From: a virus
Direction: 5' to 3' (one strand)
Virus record (IMG/VR): IMGVR_UViG_3300025137_005002
Coordinates: 12,479-76,478 of that record
DNA length: 64,000 nucleotides
Within the stretch, counting starts at the first letter, position 1; each line of letters starts with the position of its first letter. Below, piece after piece: positions 73 through 34,618 of this stretch. Position numbers and translations under genes: made by a program. The notes under the pieces are model-generated. The model did not search any database. It saw nothing but the letters and a program-made list of their open reading frames with translations, and had not been told where the DNA came from.

Positions 73-73
73 T

Positions 74-11470: not shown

Positions 11471-12556
11471 GTGTATAGCATACAAGACATTGATACAGTT
11501 CATTTAGAGATTACGCAGAAGTGCCAAGCCGCCTGTCCAATGTGCGACAGGAATATGAACGGTAAAGGACTTAACCCACATATTAATCTAGACGAACTTA
11601 CATTAGATGATTGTAAAAAGATATTCACAGTTGACTTTGTTAAACAACTAAAGTCAATGTATATGTGTGGTAACCTGGGAGACCCCATTGTTGCTACAGA
11701 CACACTTGAAGTATTTGAATACTTTAGACAACACAATCCAAACATATGGTTAAGCATGAACACTAACGCAGGTGCTAAGAAACCTGAGTGGTGGGCAAGG
11801 TTGGCAGAAGTGTTTGGTAAACACGGACACGTTATCTTCAGTGTAGATGGATTGAAAGACACTAACCATTTATACCGTCAAGGTGTAAGTTGGAAGATAG
11901 TTGAACAATCAATGAAGGCGTTTATTGATGCAGGTGGCAAAGCACGTTGGGACTTTCTTATTTTTGAACACAATCAACACCAAGTAGAAGAAGCCAAAGC
12001 AATGGCAGACTCTCTAGGGTTTGAAAGTTTTGTTAGTAAGAAGACTGGACGATTTGTAACTGCAACAACAGAGAAAAAAGAAAGCCACCAAGCCAAAGAC
12101 CGTAAAGGTAAAGACAGCACAGAACTTAAAAAGCCTGATGCTAAATATTTAAACAAAGCATTAAAACAACAAGACGAACTAGTCAACAAACACGGTAGTA
12201 TGGATGCCTATTACGATAGAGCATCAATCGTATGTAAAGTTTCGAACTCTACTACTAAAAGTTTATATATCAGTGCCGAAGGGCTGGCACTTCCTTGTTG
12301 TTGGACTGCTGGACGTATGTATAAATGGTGGCATAAAGATCCTAAGAAAGAAGAACCTGTTTGGGACTTTATTGAACGTGCTGGTGGCAAAGATAAAGTT
12401 GATGCTAGATACGGATTAGATAAAGTATTCAATACAGGTATTTTTGATGACATCGCTAACAGTTGGAGTAAGCCAAGTTGTGGCGATGGTAAACTTAAAG
12501 TATGTGCCATGAAGTGTGGATCTGAATTTGATCCATTCGCGGAGCAGTTTAAGTAA
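11471..12556 (+). CDS. Radical SAM protein with C-terminal twitch domain (type B)
   Basis: CQAACPMC, CGNLGDP, FSVDGL, HNQHQ, C..LPCC..CAMKC. Confidence 0.9.
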   Translation: MYSIQDIDTVHLEITQKCQAACPMCDRNMNGKGLNPHINLDELTLDDCKKIFTVDFVKQLKSMYMCGNLGDPIVATDTLEVFEYFRQHNPNIWLSMNTNAGAKKPEWWARLAEVFGKHGHVIFSVDGLKDTNHLYRQGVSWKIVEQSMKAFIDAGGKARWDFLIFEHNQHQVEEAKAMADSLGFESFVSKKTGRFVTATTEKKESHQAKDRKGKDSTELKKPDAKYLNKALKQQDELVNKHGSMDAYYDRASIVCKVSNSTTKSLYISAEGLALPCCWTAGRMYKWWHKDPKKEEPVWDFIERAGGKDKVDARYGLDKVFNTGIFDDIANSWSKPSCGDGKLKVCAMKCGSEFDPFAEQFK

Positions 12557-13713
12557 TGAAAAAATTTGTTTATGTAGAAGATATCAAACGTATTGAGTTT
12601 GGTATTACTAGTCTGTGTAATGCAGGTTGTCCAATGTGTGCAAGACATATTGATGGAACTAGTATTGTTAAACCAGACTTACCTCTACGAAGTATATCAA
12701 TTGATGACTTTATAAAGATTTCAGAAGACATAGGAGTACATACAAGAAAGGTTAACTGTAACCTTTGTGGTACAGTTGGTGATCCTATAGCACACCCACA
12801 GATAGAAAAGATACTTCACTATGGTGCAGAGAAATATAAAGTTGTTACACTTGATACAAATGGTAGTTTAAGAGATACAAAATTTTGGACTCGTCTAGGA
12901 GAAAAGCATCAACAGGTTATTAAAGACGGAGAAGGTAGACGGGGTATAGAAGTTAACTTTAGTATAGATGGTTTAGAAGATACTAATCAACTATATCGTA
13001 TTAATACAGACTACAATAAGATTATAGAGAACGCACAGGCATTTATTAACGCAGGTGGCAAGGCTATATGGAAGTTTATTATATTTGAACACAATGAACA
13101 TCAAGTTAGCGAAGCAAAGCAAAGAGCTGAAGACATGGGCTTTGCAGAATTCTCAACACTAGTAAGTAGCAGGTTTAGATTAAACACAGGCGAAGCAGTT
13201 AGTGTAGATAGTTATAAGAAGAAGGTGAATGCACCAAGTCGTGAGAAAGTAGAACAAACTCAAGACAAGCAATTCAACCTTAAAGCAAGTGATAAGTACA
13301 GTAACAAAGAAGTTACAGACTGGTATATCAAATTTGCTAAACCAGGCAATCAAGAGAAAGAACTAGCAGAAGCAACGTATGACATTAACTGTAAGAGTAT
13401 CGATAAAGGTTACTTGTACATAGACGAAGTTGCTAGACTCTGGCCTTGTTGTCACTTTCATGGTGGACTAACAGGACACACGTTTAGAAGGTTCTGGGCA
13501 GACATTGAAAAGCAGTATGGTAAAGACTTTAACAGTTTAAGAACAAGTACGTTACACCAACTATTAGATCACGATTACTTTAAAGAGTATTTGCCTAACA
13601 GTTGGGTCAATCCACAAGAATACAAACTTTGCAAAAAGTGTGTGCAAGTATGTGACAAGAGCAAAGGCATGAATAAAGATGCACAACAAAAGGCATATAC
13701 GGAATTAAGATGA
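12556..13713 (+). CDS. Radical SAM protein with C-terminal twitch domain (type B)
   Basis: CNAGCPMC, CGTVGDP, FSIDGL, HNEHQ, WPCC..CKKCVQVC. Confidence 0.9.
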   Translation: MKKFVYVEDIKRIEFGITSLCNAGCPMCARHIDGTSIVKPDLPLRSISIDDFIKISEDIGVHTRKVNCNLCGTVGDPIAHPQIEKILHYGAEKYKVVTLDTNGSLRDTKFWTRLGEKHQQVIKDGEGRRGIEVNFSIDGLEDTNQLYRINTDYNKIIENAQAFINAGGKAIWKFIIFEHNEHQVSEAKQRAEDMGFAEFSTLVSSRFRLNTGEAVSVDSYKKKVNAPSREKVEQTQDKQFNLKASDKYSNKEVTDWYIKFAKPGNQEKELAEATYDINCKSIDKGYLYIDEVARLWPCCHFHGGLTGHTFRRFWADIEKQYGKDFNSLRTSTLHQLLDHDYFKEYLPNSWVNPQEYKLCKKCVQVCDKSKGMNKDAQQKAYTELR

Positions 13714-15122
13714 AACATAAACTACCAAGTAAAACATTTTGTGCTCTACCATGGATGCATTTAAGCAGTAGACCTAACGGACATATGAGAGTATGTTGTA
13801 CAGCCAATGCAAGTGCAGTACAGGACGCAGACTCAGGTAAGAAGGTTGGAGGCGGTGAAGTAGGTGTACTAAAGAATGATGATGGTAAGCCTGCTAACTT
13901 TAACACTACAGGTTTAACTGATGCATGGAACAATAGTTATATGCGAAGTGTACGACTACAAATGCTTAAAGGTGAAAAGCCTGCAAGTTGTTTAAAGTGT
14001 TATAAAGAAGAAGAGGCTGGACACGCCAGTAAACGTATGTGGGAGACAGAGTACTGGGGAAACAGATTTAACTTAGAAGAGATAGTTGCAGAGACTACAG
14101 CCGATGGCAGTGTACCTCCTAAGATTCGTTATATAGATTTGCGTATGGGCAGTAAGTGTCAACTAGGTTGTGTTATGTGTAGTCCACATGATTCAAGTGG
14201 TTGGGTTAAAGATTGGAAGAAGATGTATCCTACACTAGAGAATGCTAAACTTAAAAACAGTATGCAGTGGGATCAAAAAGGACAAGTAGATGGTGCCACA
14301 TATAATTGGCATATGAAGAATCCAAAATTTTGGGAAGAGTTATATGAACAGATCCCACATATGTATCAGTTATACTTTGCAGGTGGAGAAAGTACTGTTA
14401 TTGAAGAACACTACACACTGTTAGAAGAAGTTGTTCGCAGAGGATATGCACCTAAGATTGAATTGCGTTACAATAGTAATGGAGTTGAAATGCCACAAAG
14501 ACTGTTTGACTTATGGGATAAGTTTAAACGTGTTCGCTTTCACTACAGTATAGATGCATACGGCAAACAAAATGATTATATTCGTTACCCAAGTGTATGG
14601 GAACATCAAGTGAAACAGTTTCATTTATTAGATAACACAGGACCTAATGTAGAAGTTACTACGGCTACAACTATACTAGCACTTAATATCTACTACATAC
14701 CCGAGTTTGTTAAATGGAAACTAACACAAAACTTTAAAAAAATTAATATGTGGCCCTTGGGAGCAGGTGGAATTAATATGCACTTTGCTTATTGGCCTCC
14801 TCAACTAAATGTTAAAGTGTTACCTCCTGAATTTAAAAAGGAAGTTACACGCAAATACACTGAAGACTTTATTCCTTGGTTAAAAGAGAACTGGAAACTA
14901 TGCACAGGAGTTGAACAAGCAGACGTAGACTATGACACTTGGTTAGCAAGTACATACGGAGTTAAACGTTTTGAGAACATTGTTAACTTTATGAACGCAG
15001 AAGACTGGAGTGAACGTTTACCAGAGATGAAAGAGTGGGTTGAAAAATTAGAAATGCACAGAGGACAGAACTTTGCAGAAGCATTTCCAGACATGACACA
15101 TATATTCGACAACGTAAAGTAG
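13710..15122 (+). CDS. Radical SAM protein with N-terminal twitch domain (type A)
   Basis: FCALPW..RVCC..CLKC; CQLGCVMC; AGGE. Confidence 0.9.
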   Translation: MKHKLPSKTFCALPWMHLSSRPNGHMRVCCTANASAVQDADSGKKVGGGEVGVLKNDDGKPANFNTTGLTDAWNNSYMRSVRLQMLKGEKPASCLKCYKEEEAGHASKRMWETEYWGNRFNLEEIVAETTADGSVPPKIRYIDLRMGSKCQLGCVMCSPHDSSGWVKDWKKMYPTLENAKLKNSMQWDQKGQVDGATYNWHMKNPKFWEELYEQIPHMYQLYFAGGESTVIEEHYTLLEEVVRRGYAPKIELRYNSNGVEMPQRLFDLWDKFKRVRFHYSIDAYGKQNDYIRYPSVWEHQVKQFHLLDNTGPNVEVTTATTILALNIYYIPEFVKWKLTQNFKKINMWPLGAGGINMHFAYWPPQLNVKVLPPEFKKEVTRKYTEDFIPWLKENWKLCTGVEQADVDYDTWLASTYGVKRFENIVNFMNAEDWSERLPEMKEWVEKLEMHRGQNFAEAFPDMTHIFDNVK

Positions 15123-15126: not shown

Positions 15127-16260
15127 ATGTCTTTATGTAACGCACCTTTTACCAATTTATACTACTCAAGCAATACAAAACAAGTTGCGTTCTGTTGTGA
15201 TATGGAACGACAACCTATAAAGACTAGTATTAACGACTGGTGGAACAGTGACTACAGTAAACAAATAAGACAAATGATGCTGGATAGAAAGTATCCTGTG
15301 GCTTGTAAAAGTTGTGCTCGAGCAGATAGCCTAGGACTTGAACCTCACAGTCGCAGTTTCGATAGTCAAACAATTCCCAAAGACATAACTAAACCAACTA
15401 GCATAGACTATAGACCAGATAACCTTTGTAATCTACAGTGTACAATGTGTAGTCCTGTAAGCAGTAACCTAGTAGAACAGTTATGGAGCAAGTATCCAGA
15501 CGTGTTTGGCGGAGTTACACCTGTGCCTAAAGACGAAGGTATGGATCAACAGTTAATGAACACACTGGATAAACAAACAGTGGCACTAAAAGTACTAGGT
15601 GGAGAACCTACTATTAACAAAAGAGTACACGAAGTATTCAAGTACTGTATTGATAATGGATACGCAGAGAACATCGACTTGCGTATGACTACTAACTTTA
15701 CTAACATGAACAGAACATACGAACTGTTAGAACAATTTAAGACAGTAAAGATAGGTGCTAGTTTAGATGCTACAGGCCCAACATACGAATATATAAGACA
15801 ACCTGCTAAATGGAACAGTGTAAAGAATCATATACTAGACTTTAGCAAAAGATACACAGGCAATAAAAAATTTAAATTAAGTGTTAACATGGTATGGCAA
15901 CCTACTAGTGCATTTACTGTAAAGACTTGGTTACCCGAACTGTTTGACTTATTCTACAATCAAGTAACAGTAAGAACTACACAGATAGATATACTACCTG
16001 TAAGTCCACATCATACTAACTGGGCAAGTGTACCCACACACTTGAGATCAAGTATAATCCAAGACTTGGATAGCGTCACTTGTACTAACAGTGAACAACT
16101 ACAGATTGTAAGAGATATGAAACAGATAGCCAGTAGTTATGAACCTTATAGTTTAAGTGAACAACAAAAGTTTAAACAATGGACACTGCAAATGGACAAG
16201 CACAAAAAAACAAACATACTAGAACTAGATCCTAGGTTTAAGGAACTGTTAGAATGCTAG
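15127..16260 (+). CDS. Radical SAM protein with N-terminal twitch domain (type A)
   Basis: LCNAPF..FCC..CKSC; CNLQCTMC; LGGEP. Confidence 0.9.
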   Translation: MSLCNAPFTNLYYSSNTKQVAFCCDMERQPIKTSINDWWNSDYSKQIRQMMLDRKYPVACKSCARADSLGLEPHSRSFDSQTIPKDITKPTSIDYRPDNLCNLQCTMCSPVSSNLVEQLWSKYPDVFGGVTPVPKDEGMDQQLMNTLDKQTVALKVLGGEPTINKRVHEVFKYCIDNGYAENIDLRMTTNFTNMNRTYELLEQFKTVKIGASLDATGPTYEYIRQPAKWNSVKNHILDFSKRYTGNKKFKLSVNMVWQPTSAFTVKTWLPELFDLFYNQVTVRTTQIDILPVSPHHTNWASVPTHLRSSIIQDLDSVTCTNSEQLQIVRDMKQIASSYEPYSLSEQQKFKQWTLQMDKHKKTNILELDPRFKELLEC

Positions 16261-16820
16261 TTAACTTTGGAGATGTATACACTGTTAAACTCAAACTTGA
16301 AGGTGAGAATCTAACACAATTCCTACAAGGTTTAATTACCAATGACATTAATAGTATTGACGGTGTATTAGAAACTTATATACTTACACCACAGGGTAAA
16401 ATAAAACATCAAATAACAATTGAAGACAAGGGCGACAGTTATACTGTACTATGCACAAACGACCAAAGTGATTTAAGTAAGTTTTTAACAATGTATGCAA
16501 ACCTAAGTGGTGTTACAGTAACTCCGTTGAGTACAGATGATGTATACTATGACCAACGTTACTTTGTTGAACTACTAGCCAAGGGTAAAATTGATACTAA
16601 CTTTCTAGTTCAACCTAGTTTATATCCAAATGAAGTAGATGACAGTCTTGTTAACTATACCAAAGGATGTTTTGTAGGACAGGAAGTAGTTGCTAGAATG
16701 AAACATCTACAAAAGAACAAGCGAACTGTACAAGTACACCTTACAGTTTGTGAACTAGTTAAAGGTGCAAAGGTGTTAACCACAGTAGACAACTACTGTA
16801 TAGTAAGACAGCCTTGTTAA
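16254..16820 (+). CDS. ygfZ: YgfZ/GcvT-family folate-binding Fe-S maturation protein (short)
   Basis: FLQGLITNDI, LTPQGK and the signature KGCFVGQEVVARM. Confidence 0.85.
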   Translation: MLVNFGDVYTVKLKLEGENLTQFLQGLITNDINSIDGVLETYILTPQGKIKHQITIEDKGDSYTVLCTNDQSDLSKFLTMYANLSGVTVTPLSTDDVYYDQRYFVELLAKGKIDTNFLVQPSLYPNEVDDSLVNYTKGCFVGQEVVARMKHLQKNKRTVQVHLTVCELVKGAKVLTTVDNYCIVRQPC

Positions 16821-16821
16821 T

Positions 16822-17067
16822 ATGTATTATAAATTGTATATGCCGAGCTTTGATGGAGCCACATGGTTCTATTACACAGATGTAGACAATCAAATAATGA
16901 CATTTGCTACACCCGAACAAGCATATGTATACAGTACTAACCTTACTCGTAAAGGTATGTGGGGAAGTAGAGCAGTGGTACACAACAACAAAGGTGAAGT
17001 TGTACCTTTTGGCCCAGGGGATACTGCTGGTCTGTCTGACGAAGACGTCGGTAAAGCCAATTTTTAG
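16822..17067 (+). CDS. Hypothetical protein
   Basis: ORF directly after ygfZ. Confidence 0.55.
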   Translation: MYYKLYMPSFDGATWFYYTDVDNQIMTFATPEQAYVYSTNLTRKGMWGSRAVVHNNKGEVVPFGPGDTAGLSDEDVGKANF

Positions 17068-17079
17068 GTAAGTATTAAT

Positions 17080-17247
17080 ATGCTTTCTAAATTATTTAAT
17101 GGGTTGCTTACACTACTGGCCCTGCCTATCTGTTGTTTAATAGCATTAATGGACACTGGTAACGGTATGAGCTATAAGCAAAACTTGAATCTTGTAATGG
17201 GACTTGGACAAAAAGGAAAATACAATGACGAGAACAACACAAATTGA
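17080..17247 (+). CDS. Small hypothetical membrane protein (55 aa)
   Basis: MLSKLFNGLLTLLALPICCLIALMD..; TAAGTA box 5 nt upstream of the ATG. Confidence 0.45.
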   Translation: MLSKLFNGLLTLLALPICCLIALMDTGNGMSYKQNLNLVMGLGQKGKYNDENNTN

Positions 17248-17407: not shown

Positions 17408-17447
17408 ACTCTAGCAAAAACCCAAAAAAAATCTGTAGCAAAAATTT

Positions 17448-17609: not shown

Positions 17610-17620
17610 TTGTTTAGTAC

Positions 17621-17821: not shown

Positions 17822-17848
17822 AGTGTCTCCTGTAGTTAACTATAACTT

Positions 17849-18757: not shown

Positions 18758-18785
18758 TTGACAAATCACCTAATCAGTGTATAAT
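18758..18785 (+). promoter_or_regulatory. Sigma70-like promoter for the 18810 rSAM gene
   Basis: GGTTGACA-N16-TATAAT. Confidence 0.75.
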
Positions 18786-18809
18786 AACAATAAGCACCCG
18801 AGTGACTAT

Positions 18810-20132
18810 ATGAAACCGAATACAAAAAGCTCTACATTCTGCGTATTACCGTGGATTCATTCGCATACATCTGCTAATGGAACCTTCAAACCCTGTTGTA
18901 ATGCCATGGGTAATGATCAACCTGTGCATACCAGCAACCCTTTAGACAAGAGTACATGGTATAAGTTCGACGCTAGTGACACAAACAAAGCCAGAGCCGC
19001 GGATAGTGTAAGCATAAGACGTAATGGTTATACATTAAGTGAATGGTTTGTAAGTCCTTATATGAATACACTGCGTGATGACTTGAATAACGGTGTGAAG
19101 AATCCCATGTGTGGACGTTGTTGGAGAGATGAAGCAAGGAGTGGCAGTAGCATACGTTCAAGAATGAACAGTAAGTACCAAGACTTGTTACCAGAAGAAC
19201 CCGGCATAGTATACTTGGACCTTAAGTTAACCAATCAATGTAACCTCAAGTGTCGTATGTGTGGCCCTAGTGACAGTAACCTTATAGGCAGTGACATAGT
19301 ACAACTAGAACAACTGGGTCTACCTGTACCTATTAACTACAGTAATGCCTTCGGCCCTAGGAGAAGAGCTCAAGTTACGGACAAGTATATAAGTGGATTA
19401 CCACACAGTACCAATGAAGACATTAAGCAACTAGTAAAACAAATTAAAGTAATGAAAATAACCGGCGGTGAACCTACACTACAGCCGGAAGTATTGAGAC
19501 TATTAGACTATGCTATAGACAATGGCTATGCTGATAACATTGAATTACAAATAACAACTAATGCTACCAAGTTCACTCCCACATTTTTAGATCATATTGA
19601 ACAGTTTAAACACGTGAGCTTTAATATAAGTGTAGATGGTTACGGTAAGACATACGATTATATACGGTATCCCTTTACATGGGACAAGTTTGAGGAACGT
19701 ATAGAGATGTTAGAGCACCGTTATGGAGCGAAGAATGAGCGAGTAGTATGGAAGTATACTTGTGTACCGCAGATGTTTAACATAGAGAACCTTTATAAAC
19801 TACAAACAAGGGTAGGCAAGTATGATCTATATATGAATAACGTGCTACACCCTGATGGTATATACAATAGTTTAGACATAGTCCCACTTAACATACTGGA
19901 GAGAAGTGTTAAATCAATTAAATTGGTAGAAGGTTCAAGTGAGATACTAGTAAACTATTTAAAAAGATTAATTACAGATAAAAAGAAATATGGTGAAGTA
20001 TCACTAGAGCGATTAAAAGACATGGTGTTAAGTGTACAAGGAGTAGATACCTTACGCAAACAACACTATAAAGACTATTTAGAGCCCCGTACGGTGGACT
20101 TTATAAGTGAATCGGCCCGTAAGACTATTTAA
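18810..20132 (+). CDS. Radical SAM protein with N-terminal twitch domain (type A)
   Basis: FCVLPW..KPCC..CGRC; CNLKCRMC; TGGEP; start moved downstream of promoter. Confidence 0.9.
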   Translation: MKPNTKSSTFCVLPWIHSHTSANGTFKPCCNAMGNDQPVHTSNPLDKSTWYKFDASDTNKARAADSVSIRRNGYTLSEWFVSPYMNTLRDDLNNGVKNPMCGRCWRDEARSGSSIRSRMNSKYQDLLPEEPGIVYLDLKLTNQCNLKCRMCGPSDSNLIGSDIVQLEQLGLPVPINYSNAFGPRRRAQVTDKYISGLPHSTNEDIKQLVKQIKVMKITGGEPTLQPEVLRLLDYAIDNGYADNIELQITTNATKFTPTFLDHIEQFKHVSFNISVDGYGKTYDYIRYPFTWDKFEERIEMLEHRYGAKNERVVWKYTCVPQMFNIENLYKLQTRVGKYDLYMNNVLHPDGIYNSLDIVPLNILERSVKSIKLVEGSSEILVNYLKRLITDKKKYGEVSLERLKDMVLSVQGVDTLRKQHYKDYLEPRTVDFISESARKTI

Positions 20133-20445: not shown

Positions 20446-22041
20446 ATGAGCATAGACTTAAATAATCCCTACGATAAACAAGTATTTGATACTAACCCTT
20501 TAGAACCTTTAAATCCGCAACTACTGACTGAACGTAAAGAGTCAAAGTGGAAAGACAATGAAGGCTACACCATGTTTCAATATGAACGTGTTAAACGTTT
20601 AGAATTGGAATTCAATAACACTTGTTTTTTATACTGTGGAGGTTGTGGACGTACATTTAATCCAGAACTAGAAAAAGCAGGCAAGAAACTTGTTATGCTT
20701 AAAGACATCAAAAAGTTTTTCCCACCCGAATTTTGTAGTCAACTGCACTACTTTTTAAGTTGCGGTAACTATGGTGATCCAACTGCACACCCTGAAACAC
20801 TAGACATACTACGTTACTTTAGAGAGAACGGTACAAAGAACGTATCAATATCAAGTAACGGAGCATCAAGAAGTCCAGAATGGTGGGCAGAACTAGCCAC
20901 AATAATCAATGGCGAAGGTGGAAGCCGTGACAATATAGTTAATTACTACGGCGGTAGAGTTACCTTTAGCATTGACGGACTGGCTGATACTAACCATTTA
21001 TATCGTGTGGGAGCAAAGTGGGATCGTATTGTAGAAAACGTTACTGCGTTTATTAATGCAGGAGGTAGAGCACGTTGGCAATGGATAATGATGAACCATA
21101 ATGAACACCAATTAGAAGAGGCCAAAGCATTTGCCAAAGACATAGGCTTTAGTGAGTTTATTGAAAAGGTATCCTTTAGATATAACCCCATACGCATGAG
21201 CAAACGTGAAGCAGAGAAACTGGCTGAAGATGCCGAGTTTGAAATGCTTAAAGACCGTAGTTTAAAGCAGGAAGAAATGCGAAAAGACGTTAGTATGAAA
21301 TTTGAGCTTACCGACACTTCAGGCGTCTCTTCGAGCCGAGCCGCTAAACAAGGTGGCACCGAACTTTCGCCCGTTAATGTAAGTGTTAATCCAGCGAACC
21401 AACATCCTTATAGAGAAAAGATTAAAGGCATACACGAACGTACAAGCAAGACTGCTAAAAAGTTTTGGAACACTAAACAAAACATTATATGTCAGAATAT
21501 AGGTGATCCACGTATATATGTTGATGCTACAGGTAAAGTATGGCCCTGCAATTGGTTAGGTGGAATAGAATTTTATGAAAACAAGGACACGCATTGGCCC
21601 TTGCCTAGTTATAAGAAGTATGGTATAGATGATCAATGGAACAGTTTATATAACTTTGCAGATGATGATAACCCTGTTAGAAGCATACTAGAACATCCTT
21701 TTTATGAGTATTTGCTGGAAGAAGACTGGAAACATAGTAGTGAAATGCAACCTGCTAAATGTAAACAAATGTGTCATACAGAGCTAGGTGATGGTATATT
21801 TGAAAGTATGAGACGTAATGAACAGAATTTAAAAACTGGTGAGTATAAAGACATCAGCGAAATACATGATACAGGTATTACTAAAGATGGACAACTAGTA
21901 GAAGCACCTAAAGATCAAAAAACAGGACGTTATAAACATCAAGGCGGAACAGGCATTGGTCCTGGCAGTAACAAGGCTGTAGAAGGATTAGATCAATCAA
22001 TATTAGATATTGAAACTATAGATGAAGACGACGAATCATAA
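20446..22041 (+). CDS. Radical SAM protein with C-terminal twitch domain (type B), long extensions
   Basis: CFLYCGGC, CGNYGDP, FSIDGL, HNEHQ, C..WPC..CKQMC. Confidence 0.88.
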   Translation: MSIDLNNPYDKQVFDTNPLEPLNPQLLTERKESKWKDNEGYTMFQYERVKRLELEFNNTCFLYCGGCGRTFNPELEKAGKKLVMLKDIKKFFPPEFCSQLHYFLSCGNYGDPTAHPETLDILRYFRENGTKNVSISSNGASRSPEWWAELATIINGEGGSRDNIVNYYGGRVTFSIDGLADTNHLYRVGAKWDRIVENVTAFINAGGRARWQWIMMNHNEHQLEEAKAFAKDIGFSEFIEKVSFRYNPIRMSKREAEKLAEDAEFEMLKDRSLKQEEMRKDVSMKFELTDTSGVSSSRAAKQGGTELSPVNVSVNPANQHPYREKIKGIHERTSKTAKKFWNTKQNIICQNIGDPRIYVDATGKVWPCNWLGGIEFYENKDTHWPLPSYKKYGIDDQWNSLYNFADDDNPVRSILEHPFYEYLLEEDWKHSSEMQPAKCKQMCHTELGDGIFESMRRNEQNLKTGEYKDISEIHDTGITKDGQLVEAPKDQKTGRYKHQGGTGIGPGSNKAVEGLDQSILDIETIDEDDES

Positions 22042-23329: not shown

Positions 23330-24258
23330 TAGAAAAAGATTTAATTAGTTCTAAAAAACACAATGCAATTTACGATTACTTTTTTCAAACAACATTAAGA
23401 GATGCTCCGTGGTATGATTGGTTAGATAAACCTGGATACTTTGAAGTTGCTGACGAATATAAAGAACGTATTACAGAATGGATACATGATAATGATTTTA
23501 ATACAGTAACAGGATTAAATCAATATAAACACTGTGATTTAATTAATGGAACTACTCAAGCATTTGATGAAGCATATTATAGATATAAAGATAGAAATCT
23601 AAGAGTTTTGCGTGGCGAGTATGCGTACCATAAAAGAATTGTTACTGATTATCAATATTTAGATAGTGTAGACAAGGATAATATTGAATTAAGTCAATTA
23701 GATAACAAAAATCCAATAAAAGAAAATGATTGGGTAATAATGAGTTTACCTTTTTGTGGGAATGGTGCTATGCCTACTGGGTATCATGCTATATTAGATG
23801 ACTGTTGGAGATTAAAAGTTCCTGTGTTAGTTGATTGTGCATGGTATGGTACTTGTATGGATCTACATATTGAATTAGGACACCCTGCTATAACAGAAGT
23901 TTGTTTTAGTTTAACTAAAAGTACAGGTACAGGTAATATTAGAAGTGGTGTACGTTACAGTAATTACGAAGATAATTTACCAATTAGACAACAAAATAAT
24001 TATAATCATTTAGTATTAGGTGCGGCTCAAGTAGGTATTCATGTTATGAAACATATACCTAGTGACTGGCAAGTAAAGAATTACAGAGACTTTCAAGTAC
24101 AACTATGTCGTAAATTGAATATTATGCCAACAAACTGTATGCATATTGCACTAGCAGAAGGAGATGAGGATTGGCACAAAGACTTTTTAATTGACCAACG
24201 TTATTATAAAGTTGGAATTAGACAAGCACTTAAAGAAATTAAAAAAGGCAACTTGTGA
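23284..24258 (+). CDS. PLP-dependent enzyme, aminotransferase class I/II-like
   Basis: NGTTQAF, VLVDCAW (PLP Asp), FSLTKSTG..RSG (PLP Lys and Arg); start uncertain. Confidence 0.7.
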   Translation: MDGYVSRTNKFASELIEKDLISSKKHNAIYDYFFQTTLRDAPWYDWLDKPGYFEVADEYKERITEWIHDNDFNTVTGLNQYKHCDLINGTTQAFDEAYYRYKDRNLRVLRGEYAYHKRIVTDYQYLDSVDKDNIELSQLDNKNPIKENDWVIMSLPFCGNGAMPTGYHAILDDCWRLKVPVLVDCAWYGTCMDLHIELGHPAITEVCFSLTKSTGTGNIRSGVRYSNYEDNLPIRQQNNYNHLVLGAAQVGIHVMKHIPSDWQVKNYRDFQVQLCRKLNIMPTNCMHIALAEGDEDWHKDFLIDQRYYKVGIRQALKEIKKGNL

Positions 24259-24265: not shown

Positions 24266-25336
24266 ATGTTAGATATAGACAAAATTAATTATATGATGAT
24301 AGAGTTTACATCGGCTTGTAATGCCAGATGTCCTGCCTGTGCTAGAACACAACATTTTGTCAACAGTGGTATAACTCCACACGGCAGTAGACAGATAACA
24401 ATGGATCATATGAAGAATTTGTTTGGTATTAAATGGCCCAACCTAAGAAAAATAAACATTGATGGTAACTATGGTGACAGTATGTATCATCCTAAAAGTT
24501 TAGAACTATTAGAGTATATTGCGGACACGCAAGATGCGTCTAATATTAAGTTATATATTGATAGTAATGGAGGGTATAAGACCCCAGAGTTTTGGAAAGA
24601 CTTAGGACAACTGATGAAACGTTTTCATGATACAAGTTGTATTACATTTGGCATTGATGGAATAGATCCGGAGATGCACGCCAGGTATAGAGTAAGAGTT
24701 AATTTAGATAAAGTCTTTGCTAATGCTAAAACATTTATTGAAAATGGTGGCAATGCAGAATGGAAGTGGATTGGCTTTGATTATAATGATCATCAACTTG
24801 AAGATGCTAAACGCATGAGTAAAGAAATGGGCTTCAGTGCGTTTATCTATAAAAACACTAGAGTAAGACATAGCATCATAAGACAGGCAATGGGTTTGCA
24901 AGACTTAGACAAAGGAGTTACTGCTACAAGTAAAAATGTTAACAGTACAATTAGTAAAGACATTGTAAAACAAGCACAGAAAGAAATTGCTAGTGTAAAA
25001 GATTTTGCTAATGAATCAGTTATTAAATGTAGATTCCGTAGAGAGAAGAACTACGGATTTCAAGTAGAGCATAGTGGCAGAATATACCAGTGTTGTCATT
25101 TACCAGGATACTACAATTATCAGCAACCGGGCAGTAAAATATACAAAGAATATGAGTACTATACAAATAAATACAGTAGTAACTGGAACAGTTTAGACGA
25201 ACATAACATAATGGACATACTAAATCATCAATATTTCCAACATGATTTGACTGACAGTTTTAATAACAAAACAGATGCTTCTGAGAACCCAAGAATAAGT
25301 AGATGCATTTCAAAATGTGGATCAATTGATGGCTAA
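24266..25336 (+). CDS. Radical SAM protein with C-terminal twitch domain (type B)
   Basis: CNARCPAC, DGNYGD, FGIDG, C..QCC..CISKC. Confidence 0.9.
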   Translation: MLDIDKINYMMIEFTSACNARCPACARTQHFVNSGITPHGSRQITMDHMKNLFGIKWPNLRKINIDGNYGDSMYHPKSLELLEYIADTQDASNIKLYIDSNGGYKTPEFWKDLGQLMKRFHDTSCITFGIDGIDPEMHARYRVRVNLDKVFANAKTFIENGGNAEWKWIGFDYNDHQLEDAKRMSKEMGFSAFIYKNTRVRHSIIRQAMGLQDLDKGVTATSKNVNSTISKDIVKQAQKEIASVKDFANESVIKCRFRREKNYGFQVEHSGRIYQCCHLPGYYNYQQPGSKIYKEYEYYTNKYSSNWNSLDEHNIMDILNHQYFQHDLTDSFNNKTDASENPRISRCISKCGSIDG

Positions 25337-26591
25337 ATTAAAAGACAAGTTCTGTCCAGCACCTTTCGTACATGGATATATCAATGCAAATAACAGAGCT
25401 CATAAACTTTGTTGTATGAGTGATATTGTGGGCAGGTTTGATAATTCAAAACCTTTGCAAGAAACATTTCAAAATTTTTGGAATGGAGAGTTTATGCAAG
25501 ACACAAGAAAGTCTTTTATGCAAGGAGAGTTTCCTGATGCTTGTTGGTATTGCAAAGAACACGAAGAAAAAGGCAACATCGCTGAAAGTCAACGTGTGCA
25601 ATTACTTAAACGTTATGAAAATAAACTAGACTACGAAGAACTTGAGTTAGATATTATAAACGGTAACAGACATAATAAGCCATTAGATATTGATTTACGT
25701 CCTGGTAAACTATGCAATTTAAAATGCAGAAGTTGTAATACTGTTTGGAGTGATAAGATTGAAAAAGAAGTTTTAGCAAATCCAGAGATACAAGGCAAAG
25801 AATGGTATTGGGATACCATTACACAAAACAAAAAGTCAATGGACATTGTTAATAGTATTGACTGGGAAAGTGATGACTTTGATATTGTAAGTGGATTTGA
25901 TTTAACAAATGTTAGATGGTTAAAAATGTCTGGCGGAGAGACACTAGTAGATAAACGTGTTATTAAAATGTTACAACGTGTGGCAGATACAGGTTATGCA
26001 AAAGATATAAACTTACATTTACTTACTAATGGAACAGTTAGTCCACATAAACTACAGTTATTACTAGAATCATTTAAACTATTAACAATTAATACAAGTT
26101 TTGATGCAAGTGGATCGTTAAATGAATACTTAAGAACAAATTCAAAGTACGACAAGTGTATCACAAACTTTAAAGACATATTTAAAATAAAGAATTTACA
26201 ATGGCAAGGCATTAATGCAGTTATGCAAGTTACTAATGCTTTCAATGTTGACGAATGGTATAGTGAATTATATGAAATAGGCAAAGAAGCAGGCGGGGAT
26301 AAGTTTAAAGGAATTAACTTACTGCCGTTAGTTGATCCTATGTATTTGTGTGTTGGTTGGTTAGATGAAGATCATAAACAACTTATTCAAAGCAAGTTAG
26401 ACATATTACTTAAACGTTATGCTAACAATACCGATATTGAAAAGAAATTAAAAGTTTTAAAAACAGAATTAAATCAAAAACTAGATGTAGAGTACGAAAA
26501 GGCAAGGTATGTAAGACATACAAAAGCATTAGATAAAATTAGGAATACAAATGTGTTAGATTTTGTGCCACAACTACAGAGGTATTGGTAA
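25329..26591 (+). CDS. Radical SAM protein with N-terminal twitch domain (type A)
   Basis: FCPAPF..LCC..CWYC; CNLKCRSC; SGGE. Confidence 0.9.
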   Translation: MAKLKDKFCPAPFVHGYINANNRAHKLCCMSDIVGRFDNSKPLQETFQNFWNGEFMQDTRKSFMQGEFPDACWYCKEHEEKGNIAESQRVQLLKRYENKLDYEELELDIINGNRHNKPLDIDLRPGKLCNLKCRSCNTVWSDKIEKEVLANPEIQGKEWYWDTITQNKKSMDIVNSIDWESDDFDIVSGFDLTNVRWLKMSGGETLVDKRVIKMLQRVADTGYAKDINLHLLTNGTVSPHKLQLLLESFKLLTINTSFDASGSLNEYLRTNSKYDKCITNFKDIFKIKNLQWQGINAVMQVTNAFNVDEWYSELYEIGKEAGGDKFKGINLLPLVDPMYLCVGWLDEDHKQLIQSKLDILLKRYANNTDIEKKLKVLKTELNQKLDVEYEKARYVRHTKALDKIRNTNVLDFVPQLQRYW

Positions 26592-28512: not shown

Positions 28513-29683
28513 AACAAAAACTAGTTGTAGTGCATTGTGGCGAAGTCTGTATTATAATGACATGACAAATGAGTATAGAGTTTGTTGTGACTTCAAACCC
28601 GTAGACATGACGAAAAGAGTAGGACTAGGCAGTGTTGAAGAATATCTTGCTAGTGATGTTTATCAAGAACTAAAGTCTGATATGTTTCAAGGTAAGTGGC
28701 ACGAAGGTTGTAAAACCTGTGAGATAGATGAAGAAAGAGGAATGGAAAGTCAACGTCAATCCTTTAATAGACAGTTTAAACTAGAAGATATTAAAGACGA
28801 TCAAGACTTTCAAATAAAGTATTTAGATTATAGACCAGGTAATTTGTGTAATCTTAAATGTAGAATGTGTACACCAATGTTTAGCAGTGTACTAGAGAAA
28901 GAATTAAATGATAACCCAGAACTAAAAGAATATGCAAGTACTAAAGTATTTGATATGATGGATGTTGCAGTTGGGCAGTTAATTAAAGACGAAAAACGTT
29001 TTGAGCATTTAGAATTACTAAAAGTATTAGGTGGCGAACCTACTATTGATCCACAAATATATGACTTATTAGAATTTGTAATAGACAAAGGGTATGCAAA
29101 GAATATAACATTAAGGTATACGACAAACGCTACCAACCAGAACAAACGCTGGCTCAACTTAATTAAAAAGTTTAAAAGAGTTGGAGTAACATTTAGTTGT
29201 GATGGAACTGGAGAAACATACGAGTATATTAGAACTCCTGCTAAATGGGAATCAGTTAAAAAGAATATACTAAATGTTGGAGAAATTACAAACTTATATA
29301 GAACAGGATTTAATGTAGTGTTTAGTGTTTGGAATTGTTTTACAGTCGATAAATGGTTACCAGAGTTAATACAAATGTCTAACAAGATATCAGGACAAAC
29401 AGAACAAGACCGTATACAAATAATAAATTGCACACACCCTAAAGGATCACAAGTATTTAATATGCCTGATCAATTTAAACAAATTGTTTTAGATAAGTTA
29501 AAAACATTACCACAACACCATACAGTAGTTCAACAGTTAATACATTATACACAACTACCACAACGTAATAATACTGCAACAAAGAGTTTCTTTGACTACA
29601 ACGACAAATTAGATAGAATTAGAAAAACAAATATTAATGATATAAGCGAACATTATGAAACACTTCGACAGAACACATTATAA
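28505..29683 (+). CDS. Radical SAM protein with N-terminal twitch domain (type A)
   Basis: SCSALW..VCC..CKTC; CNLKCRMC; LGGEP; close paralog of the upstream gene. Confidence 0.9.
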   Translation: MHKTKTSCSALWRSLYYNDMTNEYRVCCDFKPVDMTKRVGLGSVEEYLASDVYQELKSDMFQGKWHEGCKTCEIDEERGMESQRQSFNRQFKLEDIKDDQDFQIKYLDYRPGNLCNLKCRMCTPMFSSVLEKELNDNPELKEYASTKVFDMMDVAVGQLIKDEKRFEHLELLKVLGGEPTIDPQIYDLLEFVIDKGYAKNITLRYTTNATNQNKRWLNLIKKFKRVGVTFSCDGTGETYEYIRTPAKWESVKKNILNVGEITNLYRTGFNVVFSVWNCFTVDKWLPELIQMSNKISGQTEQDRIQIINCTHPKGSQVFNMPDQFKQIVLDKLKTLPQHHTVVQQLIHYTQLPQRNNTATKSFFDYNDKLDRIRKTNINDISEHYETLRQNTL

Positions 29684-31166
29684 AGATCCAGAAGAGTATC
29701 AGCAGAGTATAAAAGATAAAGGCTGTTCAGGCTTTTGTCCTATACCCTGGGTTAGTCTAGGAGTTAATAACAACGGTGACTATCGTATGTGTGTTCAAGC
29801 CGCGGCTAATAGAAAAGATAATATCAGAGGACAATGCAAAGGTACTGATGGTGTTACTATGCGTATTGAAGATACAAGTATTGCCGACAGTCGCAACAGT
29901 GAAGTAATGAAAGAAACACGTCGCGATATGATTGCCGGTAAAAGAAGTGAACATTGTGTCAGATGTAACAAGGAAGATGATGCTGGTTCTAGTAGTAGAC
30001 GTTGGCTGGACTTAAAAAAGTATTGGCAAGAGTTTGATATTGATGATGCAATAGAAAACACTAACGAAGATGGAAGTATAGACACAGAAGAATATCCGCT
30101 ATTAGATTTAGATTTAAGACTAGACAATACTTGTAACTTAAAATGTAGAATGTGTGGGCCTACTGAAAGTCATCAATGGTACACTGAATGGGTTAAGACA
30201 AGTGGGTATAATAAATTTAAAGCATATGATCATACAGTTAATTTAGAGATGAAAGGCAATCGTGCTCAGATAGTTGGAAAAAGTCCTTATGGTTGGTCTG
30301 ATAGAGTAGATGTTGCAAACATACTACAGAAAGATGCTCCTCATTTAAAACAAATATACATGAGTGGAGGAGAACCGTTAATCATTAAACAACAATATGA
30401 ACTATTGCAAAAGTATATTGATAATGGAACTGCAAAAGACCTAGAAGTAGATTACAATACAAACTTTACTAGTATTCCACAACGTGCATTGGATCAATGG
30501 AAAGAGTTTAAACAAGTTAATATTGGCGGAAGTGTAGACGGTATTGACAAAGTTAATGACTATGTTAGGTATCCAAGCAAGTGGAGTCAAGTAAAAGATA
30601 ACATAAAGAAATTAGATACACAAACAGAAGACAATGTAACTTGTTGGTTAACATATACTTGGCAGATATTAAATGTGTTAAGTGTAACAGACTTAATTGA
30701 ATACTGTTTAGAACAAGACTTCGTTAAGTTTAATAGGTACAGTCAAAGTGCTTTCTTTACATATCACCCTGTACATAATCCTGCGTATTATTGTGTAACT
30801 AGTTTACCTGATAGTGCTAAAGAATATGTTACAAATCATATTAACAACTGGAAAAACGGTTGGTTTACTGATTGGTGTAATAGTAAACCTAAAGACTATA
30901 AAATGTCTAATACTAATTATAAAATGAGACATCATGGACAAATTATAAGAGATTGGGATCATGGCATTGATGGACTATATGATGTAACAGAGAAACAATT
31001 AGATTCAATGTTAAATTTTATGCATGGTAGCAGTACAACAGAACATATGCCAGAGATGTGGAGACGTACACAAATACTTGATAAGAGTAGAGGAGAAAAC
31101 TTTGAAGAAGTTTATCCTGAACTTGCAGTTCATATTAAAAAACACTTAGGTATTAGTAATGATTAA
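29655..31166 (+). CDS. Radical SAM protein with N-terminal twitch domain (type A)
   Basis: FCPIPW..RMC..CVRC; CNLKCRMC; SGGEP. Confidence 0.9.
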   Translation: MKHFDRTHYKDPEEYQQSIKDKGCSGFCPIPWVSLGVNNNGDYRMCVQAAANRKDNIRGQCKGTDGVTMRIEDTSIADSRNSEVMKETRRDMIAGKRSEHCVRCNKEDDAGSSSRRWLDLKKYWQEFDIDDAIENTNEDGSIDTEEYPLLDLDLRLDNTCNLKCRMCGPTESHQWYTEWVKTSGYNKFKAYDHTVNLEMKGNRAQIVGKSPYGWSDRVDVANILQKDAPHLKQIYMSGGEPLIIKQQYELLQKYIDNGTAKDLEVDYNTNFTSIPQRALDQWKEFKQVNIGGSVDGIDKVNDYVRYPSKWSQVKDNIKKLDTQTEDNVTCWLTYTWQILNVLSVTDLIEYCLEQDFVKFNRYSQSAFFTYHPVHNPAYYCVTSLPDSAKEYVTNHINNWKNGWFTDWCNSKPKDYKMSNTNYKMRHHGQIIRDWDHGIDGLYDVTEKQLDSMLNFMHGSSTTEHMPEMWRRTQILDKSRGENFEEVYPELAVHIKKHLGISND

Positions 31167-32253
31167 ATTAGAAGATTTAGAATCAATACAATTAGAAATT
31201 ACAAGTAATTGTAATGCTATGTGTTTAGATTGTGCTAGAAACATTGACGGAGTAAAACTTAATCCATATGTAGAGTTTGGTAAAGCAGGAAACATGAGCT
31301 TCGAGTTATTTAAAAGTATACTTAACAAAAAGACATTACCTAACTTTAAGAAGTTAGAACTAGATGGTAACTTTGGTGATAGTTTAATACATCCGCAGAG
31401 TTACGAGTTTATGGAATACTATTGTAATGAGTTTCCAGGAACTGGTATTGAGATTAACTCTAACGGATCTTATAATGATACAGACTGGTGGTATAAGTTA
31501 GGAAAGTTATTATCCACACATCTTAAAAAGAGACCCGAGCATATTAAGTTTGGTATAGACGGAGTAGACTTTGAAACACACGGAATATACAGACGTAACT
31601 TAGATTACAATAAAATTATAGATAATGCAAAAGCATTTATAGATGGCGGAGGTGTTGCTACATGGAAGTTTTTAGAATTTGACCACAACACACATCAAGT
31701 TGAACAAGCAAGACAGATAGCAAAAGAATTAGGCTTTAAGAGATTTTATTTAAAAGCAACAAGAAATAAAACAAGAGTAATTGAAGAAACTTTAGATAAT
31801 AAATCTTACAAAGTAACCGGACAAGCAACAAAGAAAAAAGAACATATTGAAATAGACTCAATGGATAAGGCTACAAGAAATGTTTTAGAAAATCATATAA
31901 AAAGTATTGTAAGTGATACTGAAAACTTTTATGATACAAGTACAGTCCGTTGTCCGTGGCAAAAACGTAAGATGATACAAATAGATTACGATGGTAGAAT
32001 ATATCAGTGTTGTCATATTGGTGGAAAATATGGTAGAGCAAAGAACTTTAGACATAAAGAGTATCAATATTACATTGACAAATATGGTATTGATTGGAAT
32101 AACTTAAATATACATACACTACAAGAAGTTTTTGATCATCCATATTGGAAAGATCTCGACGAAAGTTTTGATAATAGTATAAATGACAAATCAAATCCAA
32201 GAATTAAAAGATGTGTTGAAAAATGTTCAGCAGAATTATGGGGTAAAGCATGA
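31159..32253 (+). CDS. Radical SAM protein with C-terminal twitch domain (type B)
   Basis: CNAMCLDC, DGNFGD, FGIDG, C..QCC..CVEKC. Confidence 0.9.
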   Translation: MIKLEDLESIQLEITSNCNAMCLDCARNIDGVKLNPYVEFGKAGNMSFELFKSILNKKTLPNFKKLELDGNFGDSLIHPQSYEFMEYYCNEFPGTGIEINSNGSYNDTDWWYKLGKLLSTHLKKRPEHIKFGIDGVDFETHGIYRRNLDYNKIIDNAKAFIDGGGVATWKFLEFDHNTHQVEQARQIAKELGFKRFYLKATRNKTRVIEETLDNKSYKVTGQATKKKEHIEIDSMDKATRNVLENHIKSIVSDTENFYDTSTVRCPWQKRKMIQIDYDGRIYQCCHIGGKYGRAKNFRHKEYQYYIDKYGIDWNNLNIHTLQEVFDHPYWKDLDESFDNSINDKSNPRIKRCVEKCSAELWGKA

Positions 32254-33572
32254 GTAAAACATACTGTCCTATTCCTTGGAACTTCCAAGCAGTAAGAAAC
32301 AATGGTGATGTTCGTATTTGCTGTCAAGCAAATGTAACAAAGAACCAGGGTGTGGTTAGACATAAAGATGGCACACCTTATAATGCAGGAAGAGATAGTT
32401 TAGTTAGAGCCCGTAATGCCGACCTTATGAAAATTGTTCGTAAGAATATGTTAGCAGGTATATGGAGTGACGAGTGTAAGAGGTGTAAGCAAGAGGAAGA
32501 AGTTGGACTTAATAGTAGACGTCAATATGAATTACAAACTTGGAGTAAACTTGATATAAAAGAAGCACGAGCACTTACTAAAGTCGATGGAACTATTGAT
32601 ACAGAACGTGCTCCAATAAATTACTACGATTTAAGATTTGGTAACTTATGCAATTTGCAGTGTCGTATGTGTGGACCTACTGATAGTCATAGTTGGTATG
32701 AACAATGGACTGACTATCATAAAGAAGAAGGCTTTCAAGATACACATGGATACGTTAAGTTAAATCGTAATAAAAAAGGTAGATTAGAAACTAAAGATTA
32801 TAGTTGGCACGGATCTACAAGTTTTTGGAATAATATTGAAAAGAATTTAGATAAAATTCAGCACGTTTATATGGCAGGCGGTGAACCTATGATGATTGAA
32901 CGTCATTACGAGTTCCTAGAGAAGTGTGTTAAGAAAGATGTTGCTAAAAACATATTAATTGAATACAATACTAACATGACAAACTTACCTGACAAAGTAT
33001 TAGAGTACTGGAAGCATTTTAAAGAAGTTAGAGTTGGTGCAAGTATAGATGGTATGGGAGAAGTATTAGAGTATCAACGTTATCCAATTAAGTGGGAACA
33101 GGCAAAGAAGAATTTAGATAAACTAGATAAGTTTGCACAAGAAAACAGTAACATAATGGCATGGATAGCCTACACTGTTACAGTGAATAATGTTTGGCAC
33201 TTGCCTGAGTTTATGTTATGGAAAGTTAAATCAAGTGGCTGGAAGAAGATTAACAGTACAATGAAAAGACCAGTAATAACTCATCATGTTGCACATGGTC
33301 CAAAGAGAATGAACTTAAAGATATTGCCTCCGCATTTAAAAGAAACTTTAGAAGCAGTTTATAATAATTGGAAAGCCATATTTGCTAGTGAGTTTACTGA
33401 ATTACAAACAGAAAAGGCTTGCAAAATCCTTGATAGTGTGTTACAATTTACTAAATCAGAAGATTATGATCAATTAGACGAATACATCAAATTCACAAAA
33501 TATTTGGATAGAACTAGGAAACAAGATATCACAAAAGTTGTTCCTAGATACAAGGATTTGTTTAATGATTAA
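32250..33572 (+). CDS. Radical SAM protein with N-terminal twitch domain (type A)
   Basis: YCPIPW..ICC..CKRC; CNLQCRMC; AGGEP. Confidence 0.9.
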   Translation: MSKTYCPIPWNFQAVRNNGDVRICCQANVTKNQGVVRHKDGTPYNAGRDSLVRARNADLMKIVRKNMLAGIWSDECKRCKQEEEVGLNSRRQYELQTWSKLDIKEARALTKVDGTIDTERAPINYYDLRFGNLCNLQCRMCGPTDSHSWYEQWTDYHKEEGFQDTHGYVKLNRNKKGRLETKDYSWHGSTSFWNNIEKNLDKIQHVYMAGGEPMMIERHYEFLEKCVKKDVAKNILIEYNTNMTNLPDKVLEYWKHFKEVRVGASIDGMGEVLEYQRYPIKWEQAKKNLDKLDKFAQENSNIMAWIAYTVTVNNVWHLPEFMLWKVKSSGWKKINSTMKRPVITHHVAHGPKRMNLKILPPHLKETLEAVYNNWKAIFASEFTELQTEKACKILDSVLQFTKSEDYDQLDEYIKFTKYLDRTRKQDITKVVPRYKDLFND

Positions 33573-34284
33573 AGAAGGATATAAAGGTCTAAACAATTCA
33601 GTATACATTGATAATGGATTTAGAATACAAATAGAATCTAGTACTAGATGTAACTGCTTATGTCCTGGTTGTGCTAGAACAAAAATTAAACAAAAGTTTG
33701 ACGCAGGAAAAAGTAACTTAATGTATCCAATTATGGATATGTCATTAGAAGACTTTAAACTATTAGTCCGACCAGAGAACAATATATTTAGAATAACTTA
33801 TAGTCTTACACTAGGAGATCCTATATATAGTGGATCGTTCTTAGAACAGTTAGAATATTTAAATACTTTAGAGAAACGTCCTTGGATTAATTTACATACA
33901 AACGGAAGTGGTCGTTCTAAAGACTGGTGGTATAAACTAGGTAAACTATTAAAAGGCAGAGACAGAGTTGAGTTTGCTATAGATGGTTTAGAAGATACAA
34001 ACAAAATTTATAGAATAAATTCTAAATGGAAAACAATTATAGAAGGCATTAAAACATTAAAACATAGTATAGATGAAATTGATAGTGATGCCGAAGTAGA
34101 TGTTAGACACATTATATTTGAACACAACTATCATCAAACTATCGAAGTTTGCAAACTAGCACAAGAACTAAAGGCTAATACTTTGCGTATTTTTGTTGGT
34201 GATGGTAGAACGCCAAAGCATATGATTTTAAAAAGTAAAGGGTGGGATATAATTAAGAAAGAAGTAAATGATTATCTATCCTAA
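33565..34284 (+). CDS. Radical SAM core domain (type B) without twitch domain
   Basis: CNCLCPGC, LGDP, HTNG, FAIDGL, FEHNYHQ; ends before auxiliary Cys region. Confidence 0.85.
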   Translation: MIKEGYKGLNNSVYIDNGFRIQIESSTRCNCLCPGCARTKIKQKFDAGKSNLMYPIMDMSLEDFKLLVRPENNIFRITYSLTLGDPIYSGSFLEQLEYLNTLEKRPWINLHTNGSGRSKDWWYKLGKLLKGRDRVEFAIDGLEDTNKIYRINSKWKTIIEGIKTLKHSIDEIDSDAEVDVRHIIFEHNYHQTIEVCKLAQELKANTLRIFVGDGRTPKHMILKSKGWDIIKKEVNDYLS

Positions 34285-34618
34285 ATGCAAATATAGAGAT
34301 GACCAAGTTCCTATCCTAAGAGTAGATGGATACGTTGGACCTTGTTGTCACTTTGGAGGAGAACAACCCTGGTATGATTTAAAACAATTACTAGGAGAGA
34401 AGATAGAACAATTACATATAACAAAAGGAACTATGGATGAAATTAATCGTAGTGAAGCAAGTTATATGATTGAACAAAGTTTTACAGAAGCACCTATGGA
34501 TACTTGTAAACAAATGTGTGATAAACCTTTTTTAGAAACAAGTAAAAAGAGTGGCTTTAGTACTGCTAACAACAAAGTAATGATTAAGAATTTAAACAAG
34601 AGTAGATTAGATGATTGA
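34268..34618 (+). CDS. Stand-alone twitch/SPASM auxiliary Fe-S domain
   Basis: PKC..DGYVGPCCH..TCKQMC, same Cys pattern as type B C-termini. Confidence 0.8.
   Translation: MIIYPKCKYRDDQVPILRVDGYVGPCCHFGGEQPWYDLKQLLGEKIEQLHITKGTMDEINRSEASYMIEQSFTEAPMDTCKQMCDKPFLETSKKSGFSTANNKVMIKNLNKSRLDD

Follow-up and report, generated by a model that had tools for sequence, protein, structure and literature searches.

A 64 kb stretch of virus DNA (the window; bases 12479-76478 of a 76,478-base IMG/VR virus record) carries a dense array of radical S-adenosylmethionine (SAM) genes, and the order in which these genes follow one another raises the question of whether they work in fixed pairs. The array comprises 17 radical SAM genes: ten of type A, in which a cysteine-rich twitch domain precedes the radical SAM core, six of type B (one of them split in two open reading frames, ORFs), in which the core comes first, and one of a third design, type C. 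Four times a type B gene directly precedes an overlapping type A gene, and a sequence-only reading of the window had proposed that B+A is a two-enzyme module duplicated as a unit. This pairing idea has been tested here and largely fails, since B-then-A order is not enriched, the paralogue trees are incongruent and the pairs are not conserved; natural A/B fusion proteins have also been found. Types A and B are probably separate twitch-type families, each with a single auxiliary cluster, which serve one pathway without being organised in fixed B+A units.

The array sits in a 40-kb plus-strand operon (23-39911), the genes of which are tightly packed and mostly overlapping. Overlapping starts are found at about 15 of the 20 junctions between 11471 and 36050; as overlaps are usual throughout the operon, they are no mark of the B/A junctions. 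The type A and type B genes, named in the text by type and start position, are listed below, the bit scores being those against the NCBIfam model NF033640.

23..1426, plus strand: type A, outlying copy at the operon head (322.7 bits); orthologues 35-42% identical in 5/5 related phages
11471..12556, plus strand: type B, the B gene of the conserved core; identity 68-71% in related phages, 45-48% in Bdellovibrionales
12556..13713, plus strand: type B of pair 1 (before A13710), by motifs and tree; without orthologue in the five related phages
13710..15122, plus strand: type A, the conserved core A (423 bits); 58-68% identical in related phages
15127..16260, plus strand: type A, short form, by NF033640 and motifs
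18777..20132, plus strand: type A (263.8 bits)
20446..22041, plus strand: type B of pair 2 (before A22022), with a long acidic C-terminal tail, by motifs
22022..23329, plus strand: type A, sister of the A13710 orthogroup (360.9 bits; tree support 98 by the Shimodaira-Hasegawa-like approximate likelihood ratio test, SH-aLRT)
24266..25336, plus strand: type B of pair 3 (before A25317), sister of B31159 (tree support 100/97)
25317..26591, plus strand: type A, in the clade of 15127, 27331 and 28505, by NF033640 and tree
27331-28512 and 28505-29683, plus strand: two type A genes, 45% identical, the closest paralogue pair
29655..31166, plus strand: type A, in the clade of A32250 (335.2 bits), by NF033640 and tree
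31159..32253, plus strand: type B of pair 4 (before A32250), sister of B24266, by tree
32250..33572, plus strand: type A; orthologues in two related phages
33538-34284 and 34268-34618, plus strand: split type B, a core ORF followed by a stand-alone twitch ORF in another frame

The four overlapping B-then-A junctions are real, with overlaps of 4, 20, 8 to 20 and 4 bases. The sequence-only reading had also allowed that some adjacency was to be expected by chance; the four junctions seen stand against 3.0-3.7 expected. Shuffling of the labels in an array of nine A, six B and three other genes gave an expectation of 3.0 (P=0.31), and shuffling of the 16 radical SAM genes alone gave 3.7 (P=0.61). 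Enrichment was equally missing in related phages, both when the six phage arrays were taken together (nine B-then-A junctions against 6.6 expected, P=0.16) and when the five relatives were taken without the window (5 against 4.1, P=0.39). A scan of 185,579 species genomes with the B alignment yielded 53 loci; fetched loci were scanned with A and B profiles built in this analysis, and 21 non-redundant bacterial loci were tested. In these, B-then-A was found five times against 7.3 expected (P=0.92) and A-then-B nine times against the same expectation, so that mixed adjacency is not enriched in either order. The four junctions of the window would probably follow from the head-to-tail packing of ten A and six B genes.

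Conservation between phages gives the same picture. None of the four B/A pairs recurs in the five related phages (0/4), where clear orthologues exist only for A23, B11471, A13710 and the type C gene C34941, with A32250 found in two of them. For the remaining A and B copies, identity to any window gene is 23-35%, and the panel of paralogues therefore differs per phage. Directly upstream of A13710 the window has B12556, and the place before the A13710 orthologue is taken in the other five phages by a C-like radical SAM gene, by another A, by some 700 unassigned bases, by a B gene resembling B24266 or by the B11471 orthologue. The two A32250 orthologues likewise differ in what precedes them, one phage having an A gene there and the other a B12556-like B. 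Moreover, the numbers of the two types are unequal, with 10 A to 6 B in the window and 5-11 A to 2-6 B in its relatives.

Congruence of the A and B paralogue trees, which duplication of a pair would entail, fails for the only well-supported B sister pair, B24266 and B31159 (support 100/97). The genes downstream of these sisters, A25317 and A32250, belong to different supported A clades, and forcing them together gave p=0.0009 in the approximately unbiased (AU) test. The A tree was a quick tree with SH-aLRT support only, on which the AU test was also run, and the pair tested was named from the B tree and the gene order, but after the quick A tree had been seen. Further, the only clear recent tandem duplicate of the array is A27331/A28505, which is an A-A and not a B-A duplication.

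With regard to the families themselves, the ten type A genes counted earlier all stand, with CX3CX2C at residue 101-160 in each of them and with the Cys pattern described for this type (C-xx-(P)-W/F, (C)C and CxxC) in front of it. The invariant residues, in A13710 numbering, are C11, C29/30, C94 and C97, followed by C150/154/157 and GGE, and they also hold in a 98-member alignment. All ten proteins score over the cut-off of NCBIfam NF033640 (N_Twi_rSAM; 237-423 bits against 170) and match it end to end, from model positions 1-5 to 391-398, whereas no gene over this cut-off was found in 14 control genomes. By this model match, type A is NCBIfam family NF033640, "twitch domain-containing radical SAM protein", from which it differs in nothing structurally, and its swapped architecture had thus already been catalogued. 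Literature searches on N-terminal twitch/SPASM radical SAM proteins, on the family name and on radical SAM proteins in jumbo or huge phages returned nothing on the type A or type B families; as no paper was found on any NF033640 member, membership gives no function.

The count of six type B genes was likewise confirmed, with the core at residue 18-60 and one gene split, as were the motifs assigned to them (GxxGD, (H/Y)NxHQ and, after the core, C..(P/Q)C(C/N)..CxxxC). An alignment of 130 diverse members keeps the core cysteines C18/22/25, the GxxGD motif (G67/G70/D71), IDG, YR and H167-N168-x-H170-Q171, while C255, P275-C276-C277, C345 and C349 are nearly invariant; every motif listed in the earlier reading is real and family-wide. 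The C-terminal domain carries a C-x15-G-x4-C hairpin motif and four conserved cysteines, a pattern which indicates one auxiliary cluster. The family includes 1,571 representatives of 50%-identity clusters (E<=1e-30), labelled in the source databases only as "hypothetical" or "MoaA/NifB/PqqE/SkfB family", and no specific model exists for it in Pfam or NCBIfam, the best NCBIfam model being TIGR04317 with 48 bits against a cut-off of 380. Its likeness to the canonical twitch/SPASM enzymes is of a generic kind at the sequence level, GxxGD replacing GGE and HNxHQ being specific to the family. To judge from its sequences, type B is a large, coherent and unnamed family of the twitch class; it is a new member of that class, type A being the already catalogued one.

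The split type B gene deserves separate mention. The core through HNxHQ is encoded in 33538-34284 and the twitch part in 34268-34618, with a 17-base overlap and an A-rich junction. The split could be due to a frameshift or to a sequencing error, or the enzyme may really consist of two pieces. The N-terminal-twitch design could plausibly arise from a twitch ORF of this free-standing kind that lies upstream of another radical SAM core.

The description of the two architectures as a domain-order swap was supported, both by the position of the Pfam SPASM match, at the N-terminus of A and, below the cut-off, at the C-terminus of B, and by the alignment of structure models. The Pfam match covers residues 11-98 of A13710 (22.4 bits against a cut-off of 21.5), whereas among the type B copies PF13186 gave 19.3 bits for B31159 and 19.0 bits for the 34268 ORF, below the same cut-off, and no match for the others. 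Predicted models were obtained with high confidence for B11471 (predicted local distance difference test, pLDDT, 96.9; predicted template modelling score, pTM, 0.94) and A13710 (pLDDT 91.5, pTM 0.91). The canonical twitch/SPASM enzymes (BlsE, BtrN, SpeY, MoaA, SkfB, SuiB and anSME) have the same core-then-Cys-rich order as type B, with whole-length Z scores of 12-18, and the B11471 model is collinear with them over residues 1-360 (SuiB 18.1, SkfB 18.1, BlsE 17.7, MoaA 17.4, anSME 16.9, BtrN 14.8). The A13710 model, in contrast, aligns by its core only, over residues 137-436, with a best Z of 11.7 (BlsE); such a contrast between an end-to-end and a core-only fit is what a domain-order swap predicts. 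BlsE, a nucleoside-sugar decarboxylase, comes first in the structural match lists for the A model and in the Foldseek list for the B model, although for the latter model its Z score is level with those of SuiB and SkfB. Sequence searches of solved structures returned only generic core matches for both types. When the N-terminal domain of A was compared by hhalign with the C-terminal domain of B, G-x4-CC and CxxC/CxxxC fell in register, but weakly (E 0.0034, probability 9.6%), and moving the A N-terminal domain in silico to the C-terminus brought no gain over a shuffled control when scored on the 130-member B profile; a homology of the A and B twitch domains would thus rest on the Pfam and NCBIfam assignments and on the motifs, and not on a direct match between A and B.

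The two families are linked at family level, through shared arrays and through fusions. Contigs with mixed A/B arrays are assigned to Bdellovibrionota, Acidimicrobiia, Verrucomicrobiota, Chloroflexota and Bacteroidota, those of Bdellovibrionota including a complete 2.9-Mb Bacteriovoracaceae chromosome. Moreover, four natural A/B fusions, each with a full type A, occur among the 150 best B-family representatives: two in B-A order, P0179 (856 aa) and P0174 (775 aa), and two in A-B order, P0231 (771 aa) and P0241 (816 aa). The linker of P0179 is rich in Pro and Glu, P0174 has a full-length orthologue of 778 residues (74% identical) and P0241 heads a 13-member cluster with five full-length members and one member labelled SAR202, so that the fusions are not calling errors; as they are mutually only 22-37% identical and occur in both orders, they arose more than once. 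Longer fused forms sought with the B alignment, in the 931-2655-residue range only, were not found. As a separate observation, B11471 matches positions 409-656 of the 735-position phage radical SAM family phrog_21308, which suggests that a further long form, possibly a fusion, exists in cultured or catalogued phages. A scan of viral contigs with B20446 as single query returned only near-identical phages, of no use as an independent test.

Type B also exists on its own. In the fetched DNA, B without A was found in at least 12 bacterial loci, from actinomycetes, Nitrospirales, Microcoleus, Desulfofustis, Rhodobacteraceae and others. A solo B gene on a Lachnospiraceae contig (L097:4380-14750) has as neighbours a radical SAM/SPASM gene, an NTP_transf_5 gene and an HprK-like gene, and one in Microcoleus (L106:1775-4306) has a flavoprotein neighbour; the context of a solo B gene examined in Plantactinospora was uninformative.

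What does remain constant across phages is a small core, composed of 7437, 8089, B11471, A13710 and C34941, to which A23 can be added. These and the other accompanying genes of the operon are the following:

7437-8108 and 8089-8796, plus strand: two proteins accompanying the core; tblastn matches in 91 and 96 loci, including Bdellovibrionales
16254..16820, plus strand: YgfZ-like Fe-S cluster assembly/insertion protein, within the array; TIGR03317 47.1 bits (cut-off 49), GCV_T
23284..24258, plus strand: Cys-rich protein of 324 aa; 43-44% identical in L085 and L118
34941..36050, plus strand: type C radical SAM with GGEP and without a clear twitch; more conserved than any other gene of the array
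36117..36897, plus strand: genes for Fe-S supply (NifU-like and SufE-like), immediately following the array

The type C protein is 74-76% identical between phages and 57-66% identical to bacterial copies, and fits neither the A nor the B design. Its best named models, both weak, are prokaryotic viperin and MoaA; viperin and MoaA are nucleotide-acting enzymes. In Bdellovibrionales the orthologues of the type C gene and of B11471 are direct neighbours, and that of A13710 lies 0-5 kb away, often on the other strand. No match was found for 7437 and 8089 in Pfam, NCBIfam, PHROGs or the Protein Data Bank (PDB), a weak methyltransferase-like lead for 8089 coming from a protein atlas; both stay beside the core in over 90 phage loci and in Bdellovibrionales. 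The Cys-rich protein 23284 had no match in Pfam, NCBIfam or PHROG, and its counterparts also follow an A gene in bacterial arrays.

Upstream of the array lie sugar-type genes, namely two UDP-Glc/GDP-Man dehydrogenase-like genes and genes for a DegT aminotransferase, a carbamoyltransferase, a cupin and a cytidylyltransferase, and an amidinotransferase-like gene is also found around it. On the complete Bacteriovoracaceae chromosome, GT2, PMT_2, SDR and Glf-like genes stand beside the array. The operon is interrupted for 2 kb (16820-18777) by small ORFs on both strands, with a lower GC skew; for the small ORFs of 16822-18663 no counterpart was found in bacterial arrays and almost none in phages, and no precursor-peptide candidate was seen among them.

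The reading favoured here can be put as follows. Each protein has CX3CX2C, GGE or GxxGD, and a four-Cys twitch, and would therefore probably carry out one tailoring step on its own. Each enzyme would perform one radical step, in which hydrogen abstraction may lead to oxidation, epimerisation, dehydration, decarboxylation or formation of a C-C bond. The sugar-handling neighbours, together with the place of BlsE among the top structural matches of both models, suggest that a sugar or nucleotide-sugar is tailored, and the steps would probably take place on a common sugar-type scaffold made by the upstream nucleotide-sugar genes. The locus consists of a conserved core and of a panel of A and B paralogues, old and diverged, which varies by phage and has no preferred order.

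Several points weigh against this reading. The adjacency tests are low in power, the loci being few and partly related. A13710 and A22022 form sister clades, with the B genes upstream of them in a single weakly supported group, so that one old duplication of a B+A unit would be compatible, if weakly, with the trees. The orthologues of B11471 and A13710 lie close together in 6/6 phages and in Bdellovibrionales, which could be a specific partnership rather than plain synteny; in Bdellovibrionales, however, they are transcribed convergently and are therefore not translationally coupled. A physical A:B complex would likewise agree with the fusions, in one of which the linker is only about ten residues long. 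The sugar assignment, for its part, draws on the neighbours and on a weak structural likeness, and the peptide-type neighbours of some solo B genes indicate that the B family may extend beyond sugar substrates.

Some of these points are those on which the alternatives draw. A genuine B+A module of two enzymes, which form a heterodimer or carry out coupled obligatory steps, duplicated for different positions or substrates, would account for the four overlapping junctions, for another two B-then-A junctions in one related phage (G005), for the sister relationship of A13710 and A22022 and for the fusions, one of which has been kept to a divergence of 74% identity. It is nevertheless unlikely in view of the lack of enrichment over shuffled order anywhere tested, the unrelated A genes behind the sisters B24266 and B31159, the loss of the pairs in related phages, the unequal A and B counts, the fusions in both orders, the bacterial loci with B and no A, and the convergent orthologues of B11471 and A13710. 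A looser arrangement, in which any A would dock on any B for electron transfer or hand-over of an intermediate and no gene pairs would be fixed, agrees with fusions in both orders from divergent subfamilies, with the constant company of A and B in arrays and with the single four-Cys auxiliary cluster of both families; in known twitch enzymes such as BtrN and anSME, the auxiliary cluster serves electron transfer. Such promiscuous hetero-complexes are equally doubtful, however, since B stands alone in many genomes, the A:B ratio varies and neighbouring pathway genes also fuse without forming a complex in the unfused state. A related idea, that A and B physically team up into mixed radical SAM assemblies with the variable paralogues docking on the core of B11471, A13710 and C34941, is given a similarly low probability; if true, it would amount to a combinatorial, assembly-line-like diversification of a heavily modified glycan by phages and predatory bacteria.

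The substrate need not be a sugar, and an array modifying a ribosomal peptide or a phage protein, with cross-links or epimerisations at many positions in the manner of the maturases of ribosomally synthesised and post-translationally modified peptides (RiPPs), was also considered. The SPASM/twitch peptide maturases SuiB, SkfB and CteB rank with the best structural matches, peptide-type genes adjoin some of the solo B genes and the number of paralogues could match many sites of one substrate. No conserved small precursor gene was found, however, the ORFs of 16822-18663 being the case in point, nor did A, B or their neighbours show a RiPP recognition element or a PqqD domain, and these neighbours are sugar-nucleotide and glycosyltransferase genes both in the window and on the bacterial chromosome, which makes this the least probable of the alternatives. 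Separate A and B families, each enzyme acting singly in one pathway, are thus still preferred.

Among known systems, one precedent for a pair is the His-Xaa-Ser system, in which two radical SAM enzymes, HxsB and HxsC (TIGR03978 and TIGR03977), stand side by side and are assumed to act on one substrate. The window genes give weak generic matches to these models (15-27 bits) and, unlike HxsB/HxsC, types A and B have neither a fixed order nor a fixed partner and differ in copy number. As regards phages, the large, virulent Campylobacter phages CP220 and CPt10 carry 11-12 radical SAM genes, of which five make up an interchangeable module whose role is unknown (Timms et al. 2010, PMC2853527); multi-radical-SAM blocks in phages have been on record since these two. 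The likeness to the window lies in the presence of a multi-radical-SAM block in a large phage, B11471 being distant from the radical SAM genes of CP220 and F379 (22-25% identity, E 1e-7); a search of cultured phages for close A, B or C genes found none.

The interest of the locus lies in the extent of these families, which together take up tens of kilobases in uncultured giant phages, numbering in the hundreds, and also in Bdellovibrio-like bacteria. Fixed pairs, if they existed, would require each pair to be co-expressed in bench work, whereas according to the present results a sensible start would be made with single enzymes or with the small conserved core, the natural B-A and A-B fusions being ready constructs with which to ask whether the families touch. 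More generally, a striking repeated gene order in a dense array of paralogues can be the result of pure packing.

Finally, the source of the window is a fragment of an uncultured jumbo phage. The CheckV completeness of the record is 21%, a related phage record of 381,886 bases is rated complete, and the ATPase of the window (47260-48399, minus strand) shares 49.5% identity with its counterpart in PA5oct-like jumbo phages; a search of cultured phages for DNA matching the window found no shared or near-identical DNA. Outside the array, among replication-type genes, lies a QueE-like radical SAM gene (55080-55976, minus strand; phrog_2076, E 4e-53), which may point to 7-deazaguanine modification of the DNA.

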